Assembly: GCA_001443365.1 (NCBI GenBank)
Contig: LDXL01000004.1
Coordinates: 166,870 to 190,869, forward strand
Reading direction: 5' to 3'
Source: Thaumarchaeota archaeon CSP1-1
GTDB taxonomy: Archaea; Thermoproteota; Nitrososphaeria; Nitrososphaerales; Nitrosopumilaceae
DNA: 24,000 nucleotides
Shown: positions 5,063 to 19,182 of the stretch, piece by piece
Layout: each line of letters opens with the position of its first letter
Numbering within the stretch: the stretch's first letter is position 1
Notes under the pieces: generated by a model
What the model was told of the DNA's origin: nothing
The model's database searches: none
The model's input: only the letters and a program-made list of their open reading frames with translations
Translations under genes and position numbers: made by a program

Positions 5063-5105
5063 CTACCTAGAAACTATTATACATAAACCAAGAATATTGA
5101 TTTTC

Positions 5106-5468
5106 ATGAAGGTTTTCAATGGAAAACAAGCTGCAGAAGACTATATGTCAAGTCATACACTTGCATTTTCTACTCCAGAGTTGACCCTGATGAGATTTTC
5201 ATTTTGGTTAGGAGATATGGTTCCTGATCCAACTAAGAAAGAAAATAGTATACCAAGATTACTGACATTTGTTGAAGAAAAAGATTTTGAACCTGTTCAA
5301 ATTATTGATGATGAAAAATATGAACCAACAGGTGCGGTGAGGGGTTCTGGGATGTATGGCAATACTGCTCCTCAAACCAGTTCTAATACAAAATTTTGTT
5401 CTGAATGTGGAGGTAAAATTGCTTCAGCAGCAAGATTTTGTACTGAATGTGGTGCAACCCAAGTATAA
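5106..5468 (+). CDS. Hypothetical protein with C-terminal zinc-ribbon tail
   Basis: Ends in KFCSECGGKIASAARFCTECGATQV (C-x2-CG-x7-R-FC-x2-CG). I prefer ATG 5106 to the TTG at 5097 used by the ORF track. Confidence 0.6.
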   Translation: MKVFNGKQAAEDYMSSHTLAFSTPELTLMRFSFWLGDMVPDPTKKENSIPRLLTFVEEKDFEPVQIIDDEKYEPTGAVRGSGMYGNTAPQTSSNTKFCSECGGKIASAARFCTECGATQV

Positions 5469-5486: not shown

Positions 5487-6029
5487 CTAAACTTTGTTTC
5501 CGCACTTTGTACAAAACTTTGCGTGTATTCTAAGTTCTGCACCACAACCTGTACAATGCATTCCACTACCTGGAGATCGTGATATTAATGAAGGATCTGG
5601 AGTTGGAAGTGTACCAGGTTGACTAAAACCTTGTTGGGCTGAAATTACTGAAGGTGGTGCACCTACTGGATTTTGATTAGTTCCAACACGTGCAGCGGAG
5701 GGTTGCATTCCCATTCCACCCATCATTCCTGGAGAACCCATACCAGGCATTAATCCAGGTGAATGGGTTCCACCTAGTGCTACACCCCCAGAAATTTTGT
5801 CAAGTGCTTTTTTCATTTCAAAAATAACTTTGATTGAAAGAAACTCAAGTGCAGAGTACGCAACAACATAATCACCTAGCTTTTGAAAAAATTGCTTATC
5901 AGTAAGTTTTCCATTTTTGTAAAGATTATTTGCATCAAGAAATGATTCATAGTATCCTTGTGACTGATCAAACAACGCATTTAATTTGTCTGTTAGAAGA
6001 TTTAATGTATCTATTTCACCAAGCGACAT
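5487..6029 (-). CDS. Hypothetical protein: helical N-domain, Gly/Met/Pro-rich linker, C-terminal zinc-ribbon tail
   Basis: 180 aa. The linker reads GGVALGGTHSPGLMPGMGSPGMMGGMGMQP. The tail reads MHCTGCGAELRIHAKFCTKCGNKV. Confidence 0.6.
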   Translation of the reverse strand: MSLGEIDTLNLLTDKLNALFDQSQGYYESFLDANNLYKNGKLTDKQFFQKLGDYVVAYSALEFLSIKVIFEMKKALDKISGGVALGGTHSPGLMPGMGSPGMMGGMGMQPSAARVGTNQNPVGAPPSVISAQQGFSQPGTLPTPDPSLISRSPGSGMHCTGCGAELRIHAKFCTKCGNKV

Positions 6030-6094: not shown

Positions 6095-6436
6095 CTAGAC
6101 TTTTTCTAGTGCTCTTTCAATCATATTTTTGTAGGATTCTTTTGATGCAGCACCAACTTGCTGGGCAATAATCTGACCTTTACTGAAAATTGCTAGAGTA
6201 GGAATACTAAACACATTGTATTTTGATGCTAGTTCATTAGCGTGATCTACATTTACTTTGACAAAATCTACCTTGCCGTCGTATTCTTCTGATAGTTCTT
6301 CTACAACTGGACTGACCATTCTGCAGGGACCACACCATTCTGCCCAAAAGTCAACAAAAACGGGCATTGAAGATCTCATTACATCAGTTTCCCAACTCTT
6401 TGTGTCTGACACTTGCTTGACTGCCATTGTAAACAT
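6095..6436 (-). CDS. trxA: Thioredoxin
   Basis: Canonical WAEWCGPCRM active site, a cis-Pro region (SIPTLAIF) and typical length (113 aa). Confidence 0.92.
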   Translation of the reverse strand: MFTMAVKQVSDTKSWETDVMRSSMPVFVDFWAEWCGPCRMVSPVVEELSEEYDGKVDFVKVNVDHANELASKYNVFSIPTLAIFSKGQIIAQQVGAASKESYKNMIERALEKV

Positions 6437-6547: not shown

Positions 6548-7381
6548 ATGACCTTTTGGGAAATCTCAGATATGAGCTTCGAATCAAGGACGAAGAAATT
6601 AAGGGGTTCTGGCGGTTATATTATGGCCTCAATCAATGACGAACTACAAAGAAAAGGGAACTTGGGAGGGCCAGATTTATTTTTGGCGCCAGTTGGACGA
6701 ATTGATTCAGAGAAAATTTCAAAATTTTATTGTAATACTTGTGAAAAAGACTATGAAGGAGCTCCTAGGATCCAATTTGAAAATCCAAATGAGGAGGTTG
6801 CAGAAAATCTAATTCTTGTAGAGAAGGGGCAATACATTTGCACAACTTGCGGCTCTACTCTAGCAGAATACAGAGAATTCAAAAAACCAAACGAGGCAAT
6901 AGATACAGGCAATGCAAGACCAATGACTCCACGATATGATTCAATAATATCACCTTCTAAACCAATTCAACAATCATTTCCACCACCTAGTCCAACTGTT
7001 ACAATTCCTGACTTTGATTCTCAGATGCTTCCAAGCTCTAATTTACAAGAAGATATTGTACGCCAATCTCAGCAAACTAATTCATCTTTTAATGCAATCG
7101 CAGGAATGACAGTTTATGACGAGAAAGCCAAAAGAATGGGAATAGTAAAACAAGTAGGTGTTGATGCAACTCAAAATGTCGTACTAATTATAACAAAAAA
7201 TGATGGAAGTGAAGTAAGTGTAAAATGGAATCAAATTAAAAAAATCGGAGAGATAATTCTGCTCGGCGAAGGACAAGCGGGAAATACTGGCACAATACAG
7301 TCAGTCTTAAAATGTTCTAGCTGCGGTTTTGATAACAAGCCAGGCTCTAAATTCTGTCAGAGTTGTGGCTCTCAAGTATAG
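6548..7381 (+). CDS. Zinc-ribbon / PRC-barrel domain protein with C-terminal zinc-ribbon tail
   Basis: N-terminal C-x2-C...C-x2-C pair (FYCNTCEKD...YICTTCGST), a P/S/Q-rich linker, a PRC-barrel-like segment (MTVYDEKAKRMGIVKQVGVDATQNVVLIITKNDGSEVSVKWNQIKKIGEIILLG), and the tail LKCSSCGFDNKPGSKFCQSCGSQV. The true start may be ATG 6572, because the AATATATA box at 6535-6542 is too close to 6548. Confidence 0.65.
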   Translation: MTFWEISDMSFESRTKKLRGSGGYIMASINDELQRKGNLGGPDLFLAPVGRIDSEKISKFYCNTCEKDYEGAPRIQFENPNEEVAENLILVEKGQYICTTCGSTLAEYREFKKPNEAIDTGNARPMTPRYDSIISPSKPIQQSFPPPSPTVTIPDFDSQMLPSSNLQEDIVRQSQQTNSSFNAIAGMTVYDEKAKRMGIVKQVGVDATQNVVLIITKNDGSEVSVKWNQIKKIGEIILLGEGQAGNTGTIQSVLKCSSCGFDNKPGSKFCQSCGSQV

Positions 7382-8226: not shown

Positions 8227-8703
8227 ATGGCCGCAATCGATAAAGCAGCTATTGCTTGGACTATTGCCATTGTCGCAGTAGGGGTAGGTATTGCATCTAT
8301 AGGTGGTCAATTTCAATCACCTGTTGCTACAACAGTTCCTAATACTGCACCTCCGGTAATGGAAGAACCTAGCAAACCAGTAATGGAAGAACCTACTGGA
8401 CCAATGACAGTTGAGGTATCAATACCCGCTGGAACATCAGTACCTGGTTGTGAAGAGACCAACAAGTGCTTCATTCCATCATCGGTATCCATCATGAAAG
8501 GCGATACTGTAGTTTGGTCAAATGATGACACTGCTGCACACACTGTTACAAGTGGAAGTCCAGCAAATGGACCAAGTGGAACGTTTGATAGTAGTTTGTT
8601 GATAGGTGGAAAATCCTTTGAGCATACGTTTGATTCATCAGGTTCAATTGATTATTTCTGCATGGTTCACCCATGGATGACAGGAAGCGTTCAAGTTTCC
8701 TAA
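8227..8703 (+). CDS. Membrane-anchored blue copper protein (plastocyanin/amicyanin-like cupredoxin)
   Basis: N-terminal TM anchor, a Pro/Glu-rich linker, then a cupredoxin domain. Type-1 Cu ligands: TAAHTVTS (His) and YFCMVHPWM (C-x2-H-x2-M, amicyanin-type spacing). Confidence 0.87.
   Translation: MAAIDKAAIAWTIAIVAVGVGIASIGGQFQSPVATTVPNTAPPVMEEPSKPVMEEPTGPMTVEVSIPAGTSVPGCEETNKCFIPSSVSIMKGDTVVWSNDDTAAHTVTSGSPANGPSGTFDSSLLIGGKSFEHTFDSSGSIDYFCMVHPWMTGSVQVS
8353..8400 (+). repeat. 24-bp tandem duplication inside the cupredoxin linker (encodes PVMEEPSK / PVMEEPTG)
   Basis: ccggtaatggaagaacct (8353-8370) and ccagtaatggaagaacct (8377-8394) match at 17 of 18 positions and are exactly 24 nt apart, in frame. 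Confidence 0.85.
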
Positions 8704-8758: not shown

Positions 8759-10267
8759 CTAGTCTTCTGAATTTAATCTGAATACTCTTTTAAAATATTC
8801 TGACGGTTCGTTTATTTCTTCATTGTCATCTTTAACGCCAGCTAAGTTCTTTGCTAATTGTCTCTTGTAACCTAGTTGCATTTGACGAGCAATCTGAATT
8901 CTTTGTGCCTGTGGGGAACCTGCGCCGTGCATGGATTCTGTAAGATATCCTACAGCATTTCTTCCCATAGTCATGTTCTCAATTAATCGAAAAATTCTCA
9001 TTCTGTTTTCAACATCAACTCCTTTTCTTCCTACCAAGTATTTTTTCAAAAGAGGACCTACTTCAGGATGTCTAAAGTCTTTTTCAGACGGCATAGTTAC
9101 CACAAGTCCTCCAGCAATATCCTGTGCAAGTCTACCTATTTCATATGGAAATCTGGTAACGTTATGCTTGCAAACTTGAGCTAACATGTCATCGTTAAGA
9201 TACACTCCTGATTTCAGTTTATGTGCTTGATATGAAGATGCTATACCTGCTGCGAATATAGATTCGTTAAGATGAGTCATCTCGACTAATTTATCTTTGA
9301 TATGAGAAACATTTGGTATGCCATTGTAATCAGATATTGTTGATGCAGCACCAATTAATACATCACCTAGTCCGGTTTTACAAACATAGCTTCTTCTGTG
9401 ATAACAAGTGAATCTTTCAATAAGCATTGATGCAAATTCGTATTCCCCGTCCATGAAGATTTTGTCCCATGGAATAAACACATTATCAAGAATTATCATT
9501 GCCTCCTGTCCTGCATATAGAGCATTTCCAGAATCTATATCGCCACCCTCCATGCTTCGGGTGTCACACGACTGGCGACCATAAATGTAGGTTATACCTG
9601 GTGCATCTGCTGGGAATGCTCCCACTAAAGCATAGTCTTTGTCATTTTCTGTAAGTCTTAAGGTAGGCATTATTATTATCCAGTGCGAATTGATACAACC
9701 AGTTTGATGCGCTTTTGCACCAGTAACGTAAACTCCTTTGTCATCTCTTTTTACAACGTGAACAAACATGTCAGGATCAACTTGTTCTGCAGGACCTTTA
9801 CTCCTATCCCCTTTAGGATCAGTCATTGCACCACCAATGACAAAGTTCTCATTTTGCATCATTTTTATAAAATCAAGCAATCTTTTATGATATTTTGTTC
9901 CATGTTTTTCATCTATTTCATATGTAGTAGAATGAAGTGAGTTTATTGCATCCATGCCAACACAACGTTGAAAGCATGTTCCAGTGTTTTGTCCCATCTT
10001 TCTTTGCATCTTATTTTGGAAAACTAAATCTTGAGCACTTTCAGCAATGTGTAAGAAACGATTTACCCTTTTACCACTGATGGAAGATTGCGCTGACGCA
10101 AGTTCTTCTTCTCTTACTGCTAAATCATACGTCTCAGCTACTGCATTAATTGAAGGACGAATTATTGGATGTTCTACAGGATCTTTTATCTCTTCACCAA
10201 ATAGGAAAATTTTGAGTTTTCTTCCACGTAGACTATCAATGTATTCTTTGCCAGTTCTGATCGGCAT
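8759..10267 (-). CDS. abfD: 4-hydroxybutyryl-CoA dehydratase / vinylacetyl-CoA isomerase
   Basis: 502 aa. GTC98FQRC102VGMD (C-x3-C) and CYH290RRSYVC296K fall where the [4Fe-4S] ligands of clostridial AbfD lie (Cys99, Cys103, His292, Cys299). It is adjacent to the ADP-forming CoA ligase, as I recall for Nitrosopumilus maritimus. Confidence 0.9.
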   Translation of the reverse strand: MPIRTGKEYIDSLRGRKLKIFLFGEEIKDPVEHPIIRPSINAVAETYDLAVREEELASAQSSISGKRVNRFLHIAESAQDLVFQNKMQRKMGQNTGTCFQRCVGMDAINSLHSTTYEIDEKHGTKYHKRLLDFIKMMQNENFVIGGAMTDPKGDRSKGPAEQVDPDMFVHVVKRDDKGVYVTGAKAHQTGCINSHWIIIMPTLRLTENDKDYALVGAFPADAPGITYIYGRQSCDTRSMEGGDIDSGNALYAGQEAMIILDNVFIPWDKIFMDGEYEFASMLIERFTCYHRRSYVCKTGLGDVLIGAASTISDYNGIPNVSHIKDKLVEMTHLNESIFAAGIASSYQAHKLKSGVYLNDDMLAQVCKHNVTRFPYEIGRLAQDIAGGLVVTMPSEKDFRHPEVGPLLKKYLVGRKGVDVENRMRIFRLIENMTMGRNAVGYLTESMHGAGSPQAQRIQIARQMQLGYKRQLAKNLAGVKDDNEEINEPSEYFKRVFRLNSED

Positions 10268-10287
10268 ATAAAAGGTTGCTCGAAGTT

Positions 10288-10296
10288 GTATAAATA
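10288..10296 (-). promoter_or_regulatory. Putative TATA box of the dehydratase gene (minus strand ATTTATAC)
   Basis: On the minus strand, TTTATAC is followed by exactly 20 nt and then ATG 10267. This implies its own promoter and a leaderless or near-leaderless mRNA. Confidence 0.4.
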
Positions 10297-10335
10297 TTCA
10301 GATCATAGTAAAAATGATTTTTGGAATATAGATAG

Positions 10336-12432
10336 TCAGAGTCCTATTCTAACATCTAAAATCTTACAGCCTTTGCCTTGTTCCATTACTAATACTGGAT
10401 TCATGTCAAGCTCTTTGATTTCTTTAAAATCTGTCACAAGTTGTGAGAGTTTTTGTATGCACTCAGATAATTTAGCTTTGTCTGAGGGCTTTTCTCCTCT
10501 AACACCTTCTAGAATTTTTTTCATTTTAATTGAAGATATCATGTCATCAGCTTCTTTGTCAGTTACTGGTGCTAATTTGAAAGTTACATCCTTTAAGACT
10601 TCAACATAAATTCCACCCATTCCAAGCATAATCACTGGTCCCATTCCAGGTTCAAGTTTTGATCCAATAATCATCTCCTTTCCTCCTTTGATCATTTCAA
10701 CGATTAAAACTCCCTTAATCTCAGCTTTTTTGTTATATTTTTTGGCATTTGAAACGATTTCTTCAAAGGCAGATTTTACTTCGTTGTCATTTGTGAGATT
10801 AACTTTTACACCACCTGCATCAGATTTATGAATTATTTGTGGGGATACAATCTTCATTACCACTGGATAACCAATATTCTTTGCAATTTTTACTGCATCA
10901 TTTTCTGTTTTGGCTAGAGTACTCTTTGGAAGGGGGAATCCGTATGCACGCAATACTTCTTGTCCTTCCTCTTCAAGAAGATTTGGTCTTCCATCTTTTT
11001 TGACTTTATCAATAATTTTCTTGGCTGTTGCTTTGTTAACTTTGAATTTTGAAATTTTTCCAGGAGGGGATGAAATCCATTTTGTAAATCTTAGCATGGC
11101 AGTTAATGTCCTTATGGCACCTTCTGCGTAGGTATAATATGGAATTCCTCCTTCGGCAAGAATTTTACGATTTGTAATGCCTTCATCAAGACCCATTAGA
11201 CTCGCAAGCATTGTTTTTTTGTATTTTTTTGACATTGCTACTATAACTTCTGCAAGTTTATCATAATCTAATGTTCCTGATGGAGTACACATTGAGATAA
11301 CAGAACCAACATTTGGATGACCTAAAACATGGTCCAAAACGTTACTGAACCGATTAAAATCTGCATCACCAACTATGTCAACAGGATTTCTTGAGCTTCC
11401 CCAAGGTGGAATTACTGCATCAATCTTTGATCTAATGTTATCTATTTTGGCCATTTTAATTCCATTTTTTGAGCATGCATCAGTTGAAATGATTGCAGGT
11501 CCCCCTGCATTTGATACAATTACAAGTTCCCCTTTTGTTGGAAGTGGCTGTTTTGAAAATGCAACTGCATAATCAAATAATTCTTCCATTGTATCAACTC
11601 GGATAGCTCCAGATTGTTTTAGTAGAGCATCATAGATTTCATCAGAACCCATAAGAGCACCAGTATGAGACATTGCAGCTTTTGCACCTTCTGGACTTCG
11701 ACCAGATTTTAGAACTAGAACTGGTTTCTTTAATTTCCGTGTAATGTTTTTACAAACTTTAAGAAATTCTTGTCCATTACCCATATCTTCAAGATACATG
11801 ACAATAACTTTGGTCTGTTTATGATTAGCTAGCATATTGAGAACATCAATTTCGTTCATGACTGCCTTATTCCCCATACTTACCACAGCTGAAAATCCAA
11901 TGCCTTGTGCACTTGCATCTTCACAAAGTGCAGCACATATAGCTCCGCTTTGAGATACTAGAGCTATTTCACCAGACTTTGGGGTGATTTTTAGAAATGT
12001 AGAATTCATCATTGTTTTTGGATCAAGATTCATCACTCCAAGACAATTAGGTCCTATTACTTGGATTTTGTATTTTTTTGCTATGTCCTTGAGATGCTGT
12101 TCTAATTTTGCACCTTCTTCATCTACTTCTTTGAAACCAGCAGTGATTATAATTACGCCCTTTACTTTTTTCTTACCACATTCTTCTAGAACAATTGGAA
12201 CGATAGTATTTTTTGTAACAATTACTGCAAGATCAATTGGTTTTGGTACATCAAGAACAGATTTGTAGGCTTTTTTGTAAAAGACTGTGGGTCTGGTAGG
12301 ACTGATGGGAAAAACTGTACCTTTAAAACCGTTCATGATATTTGATGTAATGGTACGTCCAACACTACCTCTTTTATCAGATGCACCAATAATTGCAATC
12401 GATTTTGGAGAAAGGAAAACTGATTCTGTCAT
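10336..12432 (-). CDS. ADP-forming acyl-CoA synthetase, fused alpha-beta (NDP-forming ACD family); probable 4-hydroxybutyrate-CoA ligase (ADP-forming)
   Basis: 698 aa. CoA-binding Rossmann segment IAIIGASDKRGSVG, phosphohistidine loop AAMSHTGALMGS, and a C-terminal ATP-grasp half (YPVVMKIVSPQIIHKSDAGGVKVNL). Substrate assignment rests on adjacency to the dehydratase and on the characterised N. maritimus enzyme (Koenneke et al., PNAS 2014). Confidence 0.85.
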   Translation of the reverse strand: MTESVFLSPKSIAIIGASDKRGSVGRTITSNIMNGFKGTVFPISPTRPTVFYKKAYKSVLDVPKPIDLAVIVTKNTIVPIVLEECGKKKVKGVIIITAGFKEVDEEGAKLEQHLKDIAKKYKIQVIGPNCLGVMNLDPKTMMNSTFLKITPKSGEIALVSQSGAICAALCEDASAQGIGFSAVVSMGNKAVMNEIDVLNMLANHKQTKVIVMYLEDMGNGQEFLKVCKNITRKLKKPVLVLKSGRSPEGAKAAMSHTGALMGSDEIYDALLKQSGAIRVDTMEELFDYAVAFSKQPLPTKGELVIVSNAGGPAIISTDACSKNGIKMAKIDNIRSKIDAVIPPWGSSRNPVDIVGDADFNRFSNVLDHVLGHPNVGSVISMCTPSGTLDYDKLAEVIVAMSKKYKKTMLASLMGLDEGITNRKILAEGGIPYYTYAEGAIRTLTAMLRFTKWISSPPGKISKFKVNKATAKKIIDKVKKDGRPNLLEEEGQEVLRAYGFPLPKSTLAKTENDAVKIAKNIGYPVVMKIVSPQIIHKSDAGGVKVNLTNDNEVKSAFEEIVSNAKKYNKKAEIKGVLIVEMIKGGKEMIIGSKLEPGMGPVIMLGMGGIYVEVLKDVTFKLAPVTDKEADDMISSIKMKKILEGVRGEKPSDKAKLSECIQKLSQLVTDFKEIKELDMNPVLVMEQGKGCKILDVRIGL

Positions 12433-13642: not shown

Positions 13643-13945
13643 TTATTTACTTTTTTCCAATTTTTGAACAAGTTCATTAAAAGTTTCCATATTTACTTCT
13701 AGGAATGTTGAAATGAAATAAGTCACACCGTATTTTTCTCCTACCTTGGTAATGATGTTGTTTTTCTCAAGCACTCTAATGTGGTGCTGGATTGCTTTAT
13801 AGTCTAAACCTAATTCTTTTGCAAGTTGATTAGCATTAAGTGGGTTTTTTTTAATTGCAGATACAAGTCTAAGTCTATTCAACCCCCCTCGTGAACCTGC
13901 AAATAAAAACCAAAAAAGTCGTTTTGAATGGGGATCGTTTGCCAT
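13643..13945 (-). CDS. Winged helix-turn-helix transcriptional regulator (ArsR/HTH_20-like)
   Basis: 100 aa. NANQLAKELGLDYKAIQHHIRVLEKNNIITKVGEKYGVTYF matches the HTH plus wing pattern of ArsR-type regulators. It is the first gene of a four-gene minus-strand string. Confidence 0.7.
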   Translation of the reverse strand: MANDPHSKRLFWFLFAGSRGGLNRLRLVSAIKKNPLNANQLAKELGLDYKAIQHHIRVLEKNNIITKVGEKYGVTYFISTFLEVNMETFNELVQKLEKSK

Positions 13946-16830: not shown

Positions 16831-17094
16831 TCATAATTGAGCTAAAAGCGGTTTTAGATTTTCTGGTAGTTCAGGTAGTTCAGTATGGCTTTCGTTGTTT
16901 TCCAAAACTTCAGGTCCAATTCTCCTTACTTTTTGAGTTCCAATAAGAGTATCAATCCCTCTTTGAACATCTTTTTCTGAAAATACTCTCTTTAATTTTT
17001 CAATTAAAACCTCTTTATTTTCATATTTTTTTATAGCATATTGTATTAGGGTCATTTTTTCATCCTTAGATAGTTCGGCCATTTGTAGATTCAT
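16831..17094 (-). CDS. Small hypothetical acidic protein
   Basis: 87-aa ORF 36 nt downstream of the Lrp/TRASH regulator gene on the same strand. Predicted helical. No recognisable motif. Confidence 0.45.
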   Translation of the reverse strand: MNLQMAELSKDEKMTLIQYAIKKYENKEVLIEKLKRVFSEKDVQRGIDTLIGTQKVRRIGPEVLENNESHTELPELPENLKPLLAQL

Positions 17095-17130: not shown

Positions 17131-17565
17131 TTATTTTTCAAGATTTTGCTTGGAAAGAGAATTTATTCTTCCACCATACTTGTCTTTGTATAATGTTCGA
17201 CATGAAGTACAACAAAAGAATCTCTCATACCGACCAAACTTCAAAACTTTTGGCTGGCTAGTTATCTCACCATCACAATAGTCACAGTTAACATTTACTG
17301 CAAGACCAGTTTGAATATGCGATTCTGGAGTTTTTATAACAGAATCTTCGGATATTTGTTTGTGAATTTTTTTATCAATCTTTTTCATATCTATGATCGG
17401 GGATACTGACTTTATCAAACCCAAGTTAACCAGCCTTTGATATCTAGACTTTATTGTTGGGGTGCTTATTGATAATTCTCTTGATATTTCTCGAAAGGAT
17501 TTTCTACCATCCTTCATCAATGATTTGATTATTGCTACATCTGTTTTATCTAATTTATGAGGCAA
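17131..17565 (-). CDS. Transcriptional regulator: Lrp/AsnC-type HTH fused to a C-terminal TRASH metal-binding domain
   Basis: The N-terminus LDKTDVAIIKSLMKDGRKSFREISRELSISTPTIKSRYQRLVNLGLI is an Lrp/AsnC HTH. The C-terminus NCDYCDGEITSQPKVLKFGRYERFFCCTSC fits the TRASH consensus C-x2-C-x20-C-x3-C (Ettema et al. 2003). A TTG start is forced by an in-frame upstream stop and the need to include the HTH. Confidence 0.78.
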   Translation of the reverse strand: MPHKLDKTDVAIIKSLMKDGRKSFREISRELSISTPTIKSRYQRLVNLGLIKSVSPIIDMKKIDKKIHKQISEDSVIKTPESHIQTGLAVNVNCDYCDGEITSQPKVLKFGRYERFFCCTSCRTLYKDKYGGRINSLSKQNLEK

Positions 17566-17585
17566 TGATTTGGTACACCTTGTTT

Positions 17586-17614
17586 GATATTTAATGATTA
17601 GACTTTACAAATGA
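17586..17614 (-). promoter_or_regulatory. Conserved 29-nt promoter/operator element, copy 1 (upstream of the TRASH regulator gene)
   Basis: The minus strand reads TCATTTGTAAAGTCTAATCATTAAATATC, then 20 nt, then TTG 17565. 26 of 29 positions are identical to copy 2. The 3' part (TTAAATAT) sits where a TATA box is expected. Confidence 0.5.
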
Positions 17615-17618
17615 CAAC

Positions 17619-17849
17619 TTAGTTATTGTGATAGAGTTTTTTGATCAATTCCTTTTTTGTTGGAACTCCTATAAACTCCAACTTGTCATCTATTACAATT
17701 CCAGGAGCAGTAAAGATTGGATATTTTTGAAGGTATTCTGGTTTTTCTGTAACATCTATAGTTGTATACAAAACCCCAAGCTCATCAAACATCTTTTCAA
17801 CTATATTACAATTTGAACATGCAGGAGTTGTAAGAATTTCAACCTTCAT
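17619..17849 (-). CDS. Small thioredoxin-fold CxxC protein (Thioredoxin_3 / redox-active disulfide protein 2-like)
   Basis: 76 aa. MKVEILTTPAC11SNC14 with a cis-Pro region TAPGIVIDDKLEFIGVP. Its start ATG overlaps the stop of the upstream YHS gene (ATGA, 17846-17849). Confidence 0.75.
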   Translation of the reverse strand: MKVEILTTPACSNCNIVEKMFDELGVLYTTIDVTEKPEYLQKYPIFTAPGIVIDDKLEFIGVPTKKELIKKLYHNN

Positions 17850-17983
17850 GATTTCTCAAATTGTTCTGGATTTCTCTCAAAGGCCCATTTACAGCTTGCA
17901 CAACAAAAATAGAATTTCCTACCGTTATAGTCTAAAGAATCATGTTTTTCATCAACTTCCATGCCACAAACAGGATCTTTCAT
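17846..17983 (-). CDS. YHS/TRASH-domain mini-protein (45 aa), putative metallochaperone
   Basis: Not in the ORF track because it is under 60 aa. Hand translation: MKDPVCGMEVDEKHDSLDYNGRKFYFCCASCKWAFERNPEQFEKS, a near-consensus YHS domain (DPVCGM.V......Y.G..YYFC...C...F..NP..). ATGA overlaps with the genes on both sides. Confidence 0.72.
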   Translation of the reverse strand: MKDPVCGMEVDEKHDSLDYNGRKFYFCCASCKWAFERNPEQFEKS

Positions 17984-18978
17984 ACAGTAACCTTTGCCTC
18001 CCTTTTATTTGCAAAATACCATGCTATTGGAAAGACAATTAATCCAGAAAATATTATTGGGATGATCTCCTGTGGTATGACAAAATCAAACATTTTTTGA
18101 TGAATGTGTTCTCCTATATGAAATTCGACTGGAAGGCCAGTCATAGATACAAGATTATTCCAACCTATGTGTACTATTGTACTCTCATACCAATCATGTC
18201 CTCCAGGAAAACCGTTAATTATTAAAAATGAGCCAATGAAAATTAGCATCCATCCTGTAATTTTCTCAATTTTGATTCTGTTAGTGGTCAAGCCCTTTGT
18301 TGCATTAATTCCTAAGATAGCAAGTAAGGAAAATAAAATTAATGGTATTGCTCTTCCTATTCCATGTACTAGGCCAAGCGAGGAACCAATCTCTAAACTT
18401 CCACTTCCTGCAATGTATATCAAAAGCCAATAAAACATTGGATTAGGACATCCAACACCTGCATTGCCAAGTAAAACCCCCATTAGATAAGATTTTGAAT
18501 ATTCGCCTCTATTCTGGATAAACTTTGGAGTCCTTGAATACGATGGCATCTTTAGTGTGATTAATTTTAGTTGTGATAGTCCAAAAATGAATCCAGAGAT
18601 TCCAGCTATGAGAAACATAATGGTAGAGAATTGATCAAGGGAAGTAGTTTTTCCTAAGGTTGCCACTCCTAAACCATACAAAGTTATTGTTGTTGTGAGT
18701 CCTGCACCAAAAAGCAATGCCATTGTTAAACCCTTTTTGTAACCTTTTCCCATACTTAGTGGAATTATTATGAAAACTAGTGGTAGAGTACAAGGAAGAA
18801 TTATCATTGAAAGGCCAGCAACATAAGATATTATCAACCAAGAGGGATAGGAAAAATCGCTTCCAGCTTTTACAGAGATATCACTAGTTAATGAAAAGAT
18901 TACACCAAGAAATATGAAAGAAAATAAGATGAATGCTGTTAAGATCCCTGATTTTTTGGCAAGTACTGATTGAGACAT
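17980..18978 (-). CDS. CcdA/DsbD-family transmembrane thiol-disulfide electron-transfer protein with His-rich C-terminal loop
   Basis: 332 aa, polytopic. Two membrane-embedded Cys motifs, IILPC63TLPL and GVGC177PNPMF, resemble the CcdA motifs (SPCxLP / TPCxGP). The loop at residues 259-296 carries H261, H270, H287, H291 and H293. Confidence 0.6.
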   Translation of the reverse strand: MSQSVLAKKSGILTAFILFSFIFLGVIFSLTSDISVKAGSDFSYPSWLIISYVAGLSMIILPCTLPLVFIIIPLSMGKGYKKGLTMALLFGAGLTTTITLYGLGVATLGKTTSLDQFSTIMFLIAGISGFIFGLSQLKLITLKMPSYSRTPKFIQNRGEYSKSYLMGVLLGNAGVGCPNPMFYWLLIYIAGSGSLEIGSSLGLVHGIGRAIPLILFSLLAILGINATKGLTTNRIKIEKITGWMLIFIGSFLIINGFPGGHDWYESTIVHIGWNNLVSMTGLPVEFHIGEHIHQKMFDFVIPQEIIPIIFSGLIVFPIAWYFANKREAKVTV

Positions 18979-18998
18979 GATTTGAGATATTATTCCCA

Positions 18999-19027
18999 GA
19001 TACTTAATGAATAGACTTTACAAATGT
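18999..19027 (-). promoter_or_regulatory. Conserved 29-nt promoter/operator element, copy 2 (upstream of the CcdA-like operon)
   Basis: The minus strand reads ACATTTGTAAAGTCTATTCATTAAGTATC, then 20 nt, then ATG 18978. The spacing is the same as for copy 1. Confidence 0.5.
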
Positions 19028-19046
19028 AAAAATCTAGGAAGAGGAA

Positions 19047-19121
19047 TGGGCCCACGGGGATTTGAACCCCGGACCTTCGCCGTGTAAGGGCGACGTCATA
19101 ACCGAACTGGACCATGAGCCC
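19047..19121 (-). tRNA. tRNA-Val (anticodon UAC)
   Basis: Hand-folded from the reverse complement. Acceptor GGGCTCA/TGGGCCC, anticodon stem TCGCC/GGCGA with loop CTTACAC, T arm CGGGG-TTCAAAT-CCCCG, discriminator A. CCA is not encoded. Confidence 0.9.
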
Positions 19122-19182
19122 AGCAAAGTACCTTGTTAAAATCCATTTAAACTTTGAGAATCAGTAAAACAAAAAATTAGAA

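Follow-up and report, generated by a model that had tools for sequence, protein, structure and literature searches.

A 24,000-nucleotide (nt) stretch of the genome of Thaumarchaeota archaeon CSP1-1 (contig LDXL01000004.1, positions 166,870 to 190,869 of the forward strand; the whole stretch is called the window below) carries a minus-strand gene quartet. It encodes a CcdA/DsbD-family membrane protein, a YHS mini-protein, a Thioredoxin_3 protein and a regulator in which an Lrp/AsnC-type helix-turn-helix (HTH) is combined with a TRASH domain. The first three genes constitute a trio whose order is kept in ~24 loci of Nitrosopumilaceae; the regulator is an accessory, and its presence goes together with that of a palindromic operator candidate. 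We propose that the module is a copper-dedicated transmembrane thiol relay, placed under metal-responsive control in those loci that carry the regulator, and give this proposal an even chance of being correct. The positions of the four genes in the window are as follows, with the lengths of the products in amino acids (aa).

17980-18978, minus strand: CcdA/DsbD-family membrane protein, 332 aa (DsbD_TM profile, Cys conservation)
17846-17983, minus strand: mini-protein of the YHS/TRASH superfamily, 45 aa (YHS profile)
17619-17849, minus strand: thioredoxin-fold protein, 76 aa (Thioredoxin_3 profile)
17131-17565, minus strand: Lrp/AsnC-HTH+TRASH regulator, 144 aa, TTG start (HTH_AsnC-type and Arc_trans_TRASH profiles)

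ATGA stop/start overlaps are read in the sequence at 17980-17983 and 17846-17849, so that the mini-protein gene overlaps both of its neighbours and the 76-aa thioredoxin (Trx) gene is translationally coupled, while 53 nt separate the Trx gene from the regulator gene. An earlier note on this DNA, made from the sequence alone, had described the four genes, both overlaps and the spacer exactly in this way, and the families it had named for the four proteins were all returned above cut-off by profile searches (DsbD_TM, YHS, Thioredoxin_3, and HTH_AsnC-type plus Arc_trans_TRASH).

The membrane protein is matched over residues 50-219 by the Pfam profile DsbD_TM (PF02683; 35.6 bits, cut-off 27.1, E=7.7e-9) and comes slightly under the cut-off for DsbD_2 (22.9, cut-off 24.9). 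The NCBIfam DsbD model gave 38.3 bits against a cut-off of 330, the match being confined to the membrane part. The protein is not a full-length DsbD or ScsB: the periplasmic alpha (and gamma) domains are absent and there is no Cys outside the membrane. Its only two Cys residues are C63 (LPCTLP) and C177 (GVGCPNP). Across 30 aligned sequences, the most distant of which have 30% identity, C177 never varies, and C63, W263 and H270 are conserved in at least 90%; most members of the subfamily also keep H205, within an HGxGR motif, and, around residues 291-293, an HxH. A profile built for the family matches the one solved structure of CcdA (5VKV; E=7.9e-7) over the whole core of six transmembrane (TM) helices with both Cys aligned. 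Membership in the CcdA/DsbD family, as claimed in the earlier note, is thus upheld against the alternative of an unrelated transporter with non-conserved Cys63 and Cys177.

In the AF2 (AlphaFold2) model of the protein (pLDDT 77, pTM 0.73) the helices are broken at 61-64 and 171-179, i.e. at both Cys; either end of the core bears an additional helix, and the segment 286-296 is poorly ordered. A Foldseek search of the PDB with this model returned no significant match. Applying the positive-inside rule to the sequence, eight TM helices are predicted, namely an extra N-terminal helix, the 6-TM CcdA core and an extra C-terminal helix; both termini would be cytoplasmic and the W/His-rich segment (~257-305) extracytoplasmic. 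The subfamily is small and distinct from the bulk of CcdA, with 449 representatives at E<=1e-3 and 82 at E<=1e-30 among 1.8 billion. The nearest protein cluster has 97-98% identity, and the close relatives all come from Nitrosarchaeum or other Nitrosopumilaceae. Two distant homologues with 26-28% identity (P0264 and P0260; L040 4342-5914 and L041 2497-4080) have lost both membrane Cys, retain HALGR and GH(Q/G)WW motifs, and have a gene for a CxxC thioredoxin-like protein immediately upstream. No clear metal genes were seen in their contexts, which do not discriminate between the hypotheses weighed below.

The 45-aa mini-protein matches Pfam YHS (PF04945) with 60.3 bits (cut-off 30.3, E=1.8e-16). 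Aligning 24 orthologues gave the pattern DPVCGM...FC(C/S/A)xxC, in which C6, C37 and C41 are conserved, M8 mostly so, and C38 is dispensable. A PDB search with the protein produced marginal matches only, to the YHS-like region of toluene/phenol monooxygenases, with no information on a metal site. We regard this cytoplasmic protein as a candidate Cu(I) chaperone or buffer. The 76-aa protein is matched by Pfam Thioredoxin_3 (PF13192; 48.6 bits, cut-off 24.8, E=8.6e-13) and lies below the cut-off of the NCBIfam model for MJ0307-family thioredoxins (TIGR00411; 46.2, cut-off 92.75). Its active site is CSNC, and the CxxC is kept in 27 sequences, including those from loci of DPANN archaea and of bacteria of the candidate phyla radiation (CPR). 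This cytoplasmic thioredoxin is a candidate electron donor to the membrane Cys pair, a role for which the conserved neighbourhood of CxxC thioredoxin genes and, in L026, of a TrxB-like gene speaks.

The regulator is matched by the HTH_AsnC-type profile (48.2 bits, cut-off 27, E=9.4e-13) and by Arc_trans_TRASH (34.0 bits, cut-off 27, E=3.1e-8); the AsnC ligand (RAM) domain gave no match in the profile search. Its N-terminus, as set by the TTG start, is backed by the orthologues, which share MPH(K/E)LD. The TRASH domain reads CxxC...FFCCxSC, and its five Cys are conserved in 10 orthologues. An N-terminal HTH with a C-terminal TRASH domain is the architecture of the CopR-type regulators of Sulfolobus; the P1B copper ATPase gene that is the further trait of a CopR-type locus was not found among the open reading frames scanned in the window. 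The likeness between the TRASH domain and the mini-protein (FFCCTSC/YFCCASC), on which the earlier note had based a paralogous sensor/chaperone pair, is real. The term 'paralogous pair' is an overstatement, since the two are distant relatives within a superfamily, with 26% identity over 31 residues, and differ in their N-terminal ligands, which are a CxxC in the regulator and a single C-G-M in the mini-protein.

The neighbourhood of the membrane protein gene was surveyed in 32 genome loci. The trio of ccdA-like, YHS and Trx genes occurs in the same order in ~24 Nitrosopumilaceae loci and in one DPANN locus, a linkage far beyond chance, and the conservation of the neighbourhood, which the earlier note had wished to see tested, holds for these three genes. 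It does not hold for the regulator as a fixed fourth gene. This was found in 11 of the ~24 Nitrosopumilaceae trio loci, and its placement takes four forms: it follows the trio on the same strand (window, L005, L006, L030, L031), lies upstream and divergent (L001, L002, L003, L010), lies downstream and convergent (L017), or is 1.3 kb away (L018). Loci of the sponge-symbiont type (L019-L022) keep the membrane gene without YHS or Trx. In one of them, from a Cenarchaeum metagenome-assembled genome (MAG), a double-rhodanese protein follows the ccdA-like gene in place of YHS and Trx (L019 5679-6452, plus strand), which hints at a sulfur or persulfide partner in this lineage. A further gene, for an 87-aa protein without family match (window 16831-17094, minus strand), stands in most Nitrosopumilaceae loci ~40 nt after Trx in the same orientation; in the window, it is separated from Trx by the regulator gene. 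It may be cotranscribed with the module.

Comparison of the upstream regions revealed a perfect 14-bp palindrome, TTTACAATTGTAAA. Wherever the regulator is present and the region upstream of the ccdA-like gene can be read, the palindrome is found 38-40 nt ahead of the start of that gene; regulator genes with a promoter of their own have it 31-38 nt ahead. Counting by locus and without correction for shared ancestry, the palindrome is present in 10/10 of these loci with the regulator and in one of ~11 without, the exception being L016, where the site is present and no regulator is within view. The four differing gene arrangements argue against simple inheritance of this co-occurrence. In front of the regulator gene, the palindrome is perfect in L001, L003, L010, L017 and L018; in the first three, a single palindrome lies within the 83-nt gap that separates the divergent starts. 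The corresponding elements of the window are these.

19017-19030, minus strand: candidate operator O1, TTTACATTTGTAAA, one mismatch from the palindrome, ending 38 nt before the ccdA-like ATG
18999-19026, minus strand: 28-nt promoter block, copy 1, comprising the right half of the operator and a TATA-like ATTAAGTAT (19000-19008), ending 20 nt before the ATG
17604-17617, minus strand: degenerate operator O2, TTGTCATTTGTAAA, right half-site intact
17586-17613, minus strand: 28-nt promoter block, copy 2, before the regulator gene, with a TATA-like ATTAAATAT (17587-17595), ending 20 nt before the start codon

The 28-nt block is near-identical in these two places of the window, and none is expected by chance, as judged from shuffled sequences. 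Its TATA box and transcription factor B recognition element (BRE) are putative and were assigned by archaeal promoter geometry; given the 20 nt between the block and the ATG, the transcript may well be leaderless or have a very short leader. The second copy, together with O2 before the regulator gene, implies autoregulation. The palindrome ends just upstream of the BRE/TATA position, and with promoters that look leaderless this placement fits activation and repression alike. A tRNA-Val(TAC) gene (19046-19122, minus strand) lies directly upstream of the operon and ends ~16 nt short of the operator, so that the promoter of the operon abuts the tRNA gene. The promoter motif reported for copper limitation in N. 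viennensis, TTCSGSMTTTGWACYANT, was compared with the palindrome and is not the same element; only a TTTGTA-like core is common to both.

Elsewhere, the palindrome is also found at other genes. Contig L018 has six copies, which are intergenic and stand beside genes for a ferric-reductase-like membrane protein, a Met/His-rich protein, a cupredoxin and the regulator, and beside an operon of a DsbA-like protein and a ZIP-like permease; two further DsbA-like genes and an HtrA-like protease gene surround its trio. In L017 a Met-rich gene is divergent from the ccdA-like gene with the palindrome in between. The extremely Met-rich proteins of both loci (L018 2776-3495 and L017 84-752, both minus strand), ~220-240 aa long and adjoining the palindrome, are also rich in His and Gln, contain MMxxM repeats, belong to no Pfam family, and by composition look like Cu(I)-binding proteins. 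L018 (JAJDED010000042.1) is assigned to a MAG of Planctomycetota; it encodes Nitrosopumilaceae-type genes, with 69% identity to the membrane protein of the window and the same operator and regulator, and is therefore probably a mis-binned archaeal contig. In two further loci (L002 2295-3200, plus strand; L005 6847-7755, minus strand), the palindrome precedes the gene of an exported BNR/Asp-box (sialidase-like) protein beside the regulator. This is the annotation type of NVIE_014170 of N. viennensis, the operon partner of DsbD_a with a 16-fold induction under copper limitation.

In other lineages the same core is repeatedly found among copper genes. In P0160, P0162, P0147 and P0158 the CcdA-like core continues on its C-terminal side into a multicopper oxidase (MCO) domain; of these proteins, P0162 was found in two independent assemblies. 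P0131 carries a cupredoxin fusion, P0124, P0129 and P0148 have fused His-rich YtkA-like domains, and in P0121 a YHS domain is fused to the cytoplasmic C-terminal tail of the membrane protein. Among the gene neighbourhoods, that of L035 packs Thioredoxin_3, CcdA-like::MCO, cupredoxin and HMA-P1B-ATPase into one tight operon, and the DPANN locus L024 combines the trio with a two-HMA ATPase and a PadR regulator that has a Cys-rich tail (CxxC...WFCCENC). In a Saccharibacteria MAG (L026), a cupredoxin gene and one for a CsoR/RcnR-family repressor accompany the CcdA-like gene, which is joined by an HMA gene at the position of YHS, by Thioredoxin_3 and by a gene for a TrxB-like reductase; there is no P-type ATPase gene up to 5 kb away. 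An unclassified bacterial MAG (L028) has the cupredoxin, CsoR-like, CcdA-like and Trx genes as in L026. The remaining contexts are CcdA-like, HMA and Thioredoxin_3 genes in L044, a YHS gene immediately before the CcdA-like gene in L037, an HMA-ATPase gene divergent from CcdA-like and YHS genes in L045, and in L038 the CcdA-like gene together with genes for a small membrane peptide and a thioredoxin with the motif CMHC, not far from a P-type ATPase gene and a DsbA-like one. Next to the CcdA-like/Trx core, Pacearchaeota (L025 3211-4402) and Saccharibacteria (L026 570-2258) encode DUF3105 proteins and proteins with PCYCGC-like Cys motifs (CYCGC, CCGNS...DCNHG); DUF3105 is also seen in L044.

Outside the ammonia oxidisers, the place of YHS is taken by HMA and that of Lrp-TRASH by a CsoR/RcnR-like or PadR protein; the substitutes come from non-homologous or distantly related families of the copper type. 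The thioredoxin is kept from archaea to CPR bacteria while the families of sensor and chaperone are swapped, which marks the CcdA-like protein and the small thioredoxin as the constant core. The copper connection proposed in the earlier note thereby receives independent support from the HMA, CsoR/RcnR-like, PadR, CopA-type ATPase, cupredoxin and MCO-fusion associations of other lineages. The earlier suggestion that the relay stands in place of an efflux ATPase is true of the locus in the window, where no E1-E2 ATPase was found among the scanned open reading frames (ORFs; the sole ORF of more than 600 aa encodes an acyl-CoA synthetase). It does not extend to a general substitution: in other phyla P1B ATPases stand beside the module in five loci (L024, L033, L035, L038, L045), so that the module is not simply a CopA replacement.

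The setting gives these observations their weight. Ammonia-oxidising archaea (AOA) base their energy metabolism on copper proteins, and their genomes were reported to encode no known copper efflux proteins (Shafiee et al., PMC9723733). Two P1B ATPases have been described in the soil AOA N. viennensis (PMC7785015), and the former statement is therefore best read for the marine genomes of that study. In N. viennensis, the DsbD-family gene NVIE_014160 is induced by copper limitation with a log2 fold change (log2FC) of 2.8 (Reyes et al., PMC7785015); its operon partners, a sialidase-like protein (log2FC 4.0) and NVIE_1444, are induced as well. YHS proteins of this organism are encoded beside CopA2 and CopZ, and beside a PadR regulator (PMC7785015, supplement). 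Reyes et al. speculate that DsbD may bind Cu(I) like ScsB, an idea which was thus raised for AOA, though not for the present module. Abby et al. (PMC7554672) list dsbA/D solely as general stress families and note many Trx/Dsb proteins in AOA. The earlier note knew of no description of this gene combination; likewise our literature search found none for the CcdA-like/YHS/Trx module among the papers it covered, and the link between DsbD and copper was already present in PMC7785015.

The relay that we favour builds on what was observed: the families of the proteins, the residues that are conserved, the linkage of the genes, the joint occurrence of operator and regulator, and the copper proteins in the context. 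From these we infer the course of the electrons, which metal is handled, whether the regulator activates or represses, and what accepts the electrons outside the cytoplasm. Thioredoxin reductase would recharge the cytoplasmic 76-aa thioredoxin, which in turn would reduce the C63/C177 pair of the CcdA-like protein. This pair would alternate between the two membrane faces and bring reducing equivalents to the outer surface, where the exported reductant would keep the Cys ligands of cupredoxin and MCO sites, as well as DsbA-like partners, in the reduced state needed for metallation or repair; Cu(II) might also be reduced on the conserved extracytoplasmic W/His motif. On the cytoplasmic side, the 45-aa YHS protein would bind Cu(I) through its three conserved Cys and either buffer it or hand it on. 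The Lrp-HTH/TRASH regulator would bind TTTACAATTGTAAA, which lies close before the BRE/TATA both of the operon and of the regulator gene itself, and would switch upon metal binding to the TRASH domain.

Several observations weigh against this proposal. No gene for an extracytoplasmic thioredoxin-like acceptor is part of the operon in the window. A metal chaperone encoded between the relay genes, or fused to the cytoplasmic tail as in P0121, is not needed by a pure electron relay, and neither the extracytoplasmic W263, H270 and HxH nor the membrane-embedded H205 has a role in canonical CcdA. The homologues that lack the Cys pair and are nevertheless adjoined by a CxxC Trx-like gene are hard to reconcile with a pure thiol-disulfide relay. 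In the CsoR-family protein of L026 the fingerprint reads x-C-H-H, whereas the classic pattern for Cu(I) is C-H-C. Orthology of the copper-responsive DsbD-family gene of N. viennensis to the protein of the window is not established, and the DsbD-family homologue of N. maritimus did not respond to copper limitation (PMC7785015); the latter could be explained by the fact that several Nitrosopumilus loci are without regulator and operator.

Some of these points are accommodated if the membrane protein translocates Cu(I) itself, C63/C177 together with H205 being the Cu(I) site of an elevator-type carrier through which copper moves between the cytoplasmic chaperone and the outer His motif or cuproproteins. 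The thioredoxin would then keep the pair reduced or drive a copper-releasing redox cycle, in the direction of export (cuproprotein assembly, detoxification) or import. We consider such translocation a possibility, if a rather unlikely one. It would account for the position of a chaperone-type gene between the membrane and Trx genes and for another copper-chaperone family in its place in other phyla, for the YHS fusion to the cytoplasmic C-terminus of P0121 and the fusion of MCO, cupredoxin and His-rich YtkA-like domains on the outer side, for the subfamily-specific conservation of H205, W263 and H270, and for an operon that encodes no thiol acceptor. L026, with its CsoR-like, CcdA-like, HMA and Trx genes and no nearby P-type ATPase, points the same way, as does the reported lack of known copper efflux proteins in AOA genomes (PMC9723733). 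The Cys pair combined with a Trx is, on the other side, the exact signature of an electron relay. An exporter is already present where P1B ATPases adjoin the module, there is no evident energy coupling, and variants without the Cys pair exist. DsbD_2 falls within the LysE superfamily, which includes metal transporters and so speaks for translocation; against it, we know of no member of the CcdA/DsbD family that carries a metal. More specifically, the CcdA-like subfamily might be a thiol-based copper carrier, in which the reduced C63/C177 and H205 take Cu(I) from YHS or HMA and release it at the outer W/His motif to cupredoxins and MCOs, with the thioredoxin resetting and possibly energising the cycle; to this version we assign a low probability. 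If true, it would define a new class of copper transporters and would answer how AOA without known copper efflux systems load and manage their many copper enzymes.

An ordinary CcdA/Trx pair that supplies reductant for general redox homeostasis of the envelope, without copper specificity, with structural zinc held by the YHS/TRASH Cys and a regulator that senses redox or another signal, would agree with the database names and with Pfam, which put the protein in the general CcdA family. It would also agree with the view of the numerous AOA Trx/Dsb proteins as stress adaptations (PMC7554672), with the three DsbA-like genes and the HtrA-like protease gene in the palindrome-rich contig L018, and with the retention of the membrane gene without YHS or Trx in L019-L022. 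We hold it to be improbable, since it leaves unexplained the repeated independent associations with HMA, CsoR-family, CopA-type ATPase, cupredoxin and MCO fusions, as well as the cupredoxin and Met-rich genes at the same operator. A module for another thiophilic metal (Hg, Ag, Zn, Ni/Co, arsenite) seems more improbable still. The copper specificity of TRASH, YHS and HMA domains is not strict, L026 has a CsoR-family protein with an RcnR-like C-H-H fingerprint, a ZIP-like permease adjoins an operator site in L018, and the Thioredoxin_3 family includes ArsE-like proteins; yet no MerA, ArsC, ArsB or CzcD-type gene was seen in any context examined, and the fused or neighbouring enzymes are the copper proteins MCO and cupredoxin. 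The public annotation, finally, names the protein 'cytochrome c-type biogenesis protein' or 'CcdA'. This name is carried over from the title of the Pfam family, AOA use copper proteins in place of cytochromes c in electron transfer (PMC7785015), and neither the window nor the related loci contain Ccs, Res or Ccm genes. We rejected this identity as having practically no likelihood; for the subfamily, 'cytochrome c biogenesis protein' is a misleading name.

With the copper-dedicated relay, the interpretation given in the earlier note is supported in outline but not in detail: copper is the probable metal, and an electron relay more probable than a hand-over of Cu(I). None of the note's refuting conditions that were open to checking here turned out to hold. 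The module offers a candidate set for copper-centre assembly, made up of a sensor with its operator, a cytoplasmic metal-binding mini-protein, a membrane protein with a Cys pair and a dedicated thioredoxin. Moreover, the combination of the CcdA-like/Trx core with swapped copper sensors and chaperones and with MCO fusions suggests a widespread, unrecognised link between exported thiol reductant and copper handling.

Other features of the window can be summarised briefly. The cupredoxin which the earlier note had brought into connection with the module is indeed present (8227-8703), but lies 9 kb away and has no operator site, and was ruled out as a member of the module on both grounds. At 8759-12432 (minus strand), a gene for a protein of the 4-hydroxyphenylacetate-hydroxylase family (4-hydroxybutyryl-CoA dehydratase type) adjoins that of an ADP-forming acyl-CoA synthetase, with an RNase H-like gene alongside; this is the hydroxypropionate/hydroxybutyrate-cycle pair typical of ammonia-oxidising archaea. 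Three proteins with a C-terminal zinc-ribbon, one of which also has a PRC-barrel, are encoded at 5097-5468 (plus strand), 5487-6029 (minus strand) and 6548-7381 (plus strand), and a canonical thioredoxin at 6095-6436 lies between these genes. A 100-aa ArsR-type HTH protein (13643-13945, minus strand) is adjoined by two small ORFs without family match and has no evident link to the module.

The CcdA/DsbD relay, the tie of Scs and DsbD to copper tolerance, and the archaeal TRASH cop regulators are each known already, and the module combines elements of these kinds. With CcdA (Thermus thermophilus, 5VKV; Bacillus; Rhodobacter) and the beta domain of DsbD it shares, as predicted from the sequence, the 6-TM core with one essential Cys in each pseudo-symmetric half (PCxxP-type), and likewise the partnership with a cytoplasmic thioredoxin, by which CcdA and DsbD beta are known to be reduced. 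It departs from CcdA in the two extra TM helices, in the extracytoplasmic W-x6-H/HxH segment and in the membrane His of HGxGR, where the Thermus protein has Tyr. Unlike CcdA, it further has a dedicated Thioredoxin_3 partner gene and an embedded metal-chaperone gene, and no partner of the cytochrome c or ResA/CcmG type. The Scs system (ScsB/ScsC; Salmonella, Proteus, Caulobacter) and E. coli DsbD (cutA2/dipZ) resemble the module, as proposed here, in that a DsbD-family reductase is tied to copper tolerance or handling in the envelope. In contrast to these, the module is without periplasmic alpha/gamma domains and without an operon partner of the ScsC/ScsD type, has a cytoplasmic metal chaperone and a TRASH regulator, and belongs to an archaeal single-membrane setting.

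The Sulfolobus cop locus (CopR/CopT, CopM/CopT, CopA) likewise unites an Lrp/AsnC-HTH+TRASH regulator with a small metal-binding protein of the TRASH superfamily, and PF08394 was defined on archaeal regulators of this HTH+TRASH type. There, the membrane partner is a P1B ATPase and not a CcdA-like protein with thioredoxin; the mini-protein of our module is of the YHS type, its regulator is optional among Nitrosopumilaceae loci, and its operator sequence is group-specific. In the TlpA/ScoI/CoxB system of Bradyrhizobium, the Cys of copper sites and of copper chaperones are held in the reduced form that metallation requires, by reductant passed out through a CcdA/DsbD-type protein. The operon described here differs in having no TlpA- or Sco-like gene, its likely clients being cupredoxins, multicopper oxidases and DsbA-like proteins. 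To the relay favoured here, this CcdA-dependent maturation of copper centres, with TlpA/ScoI/CoxB, is the nearest functional analogy.

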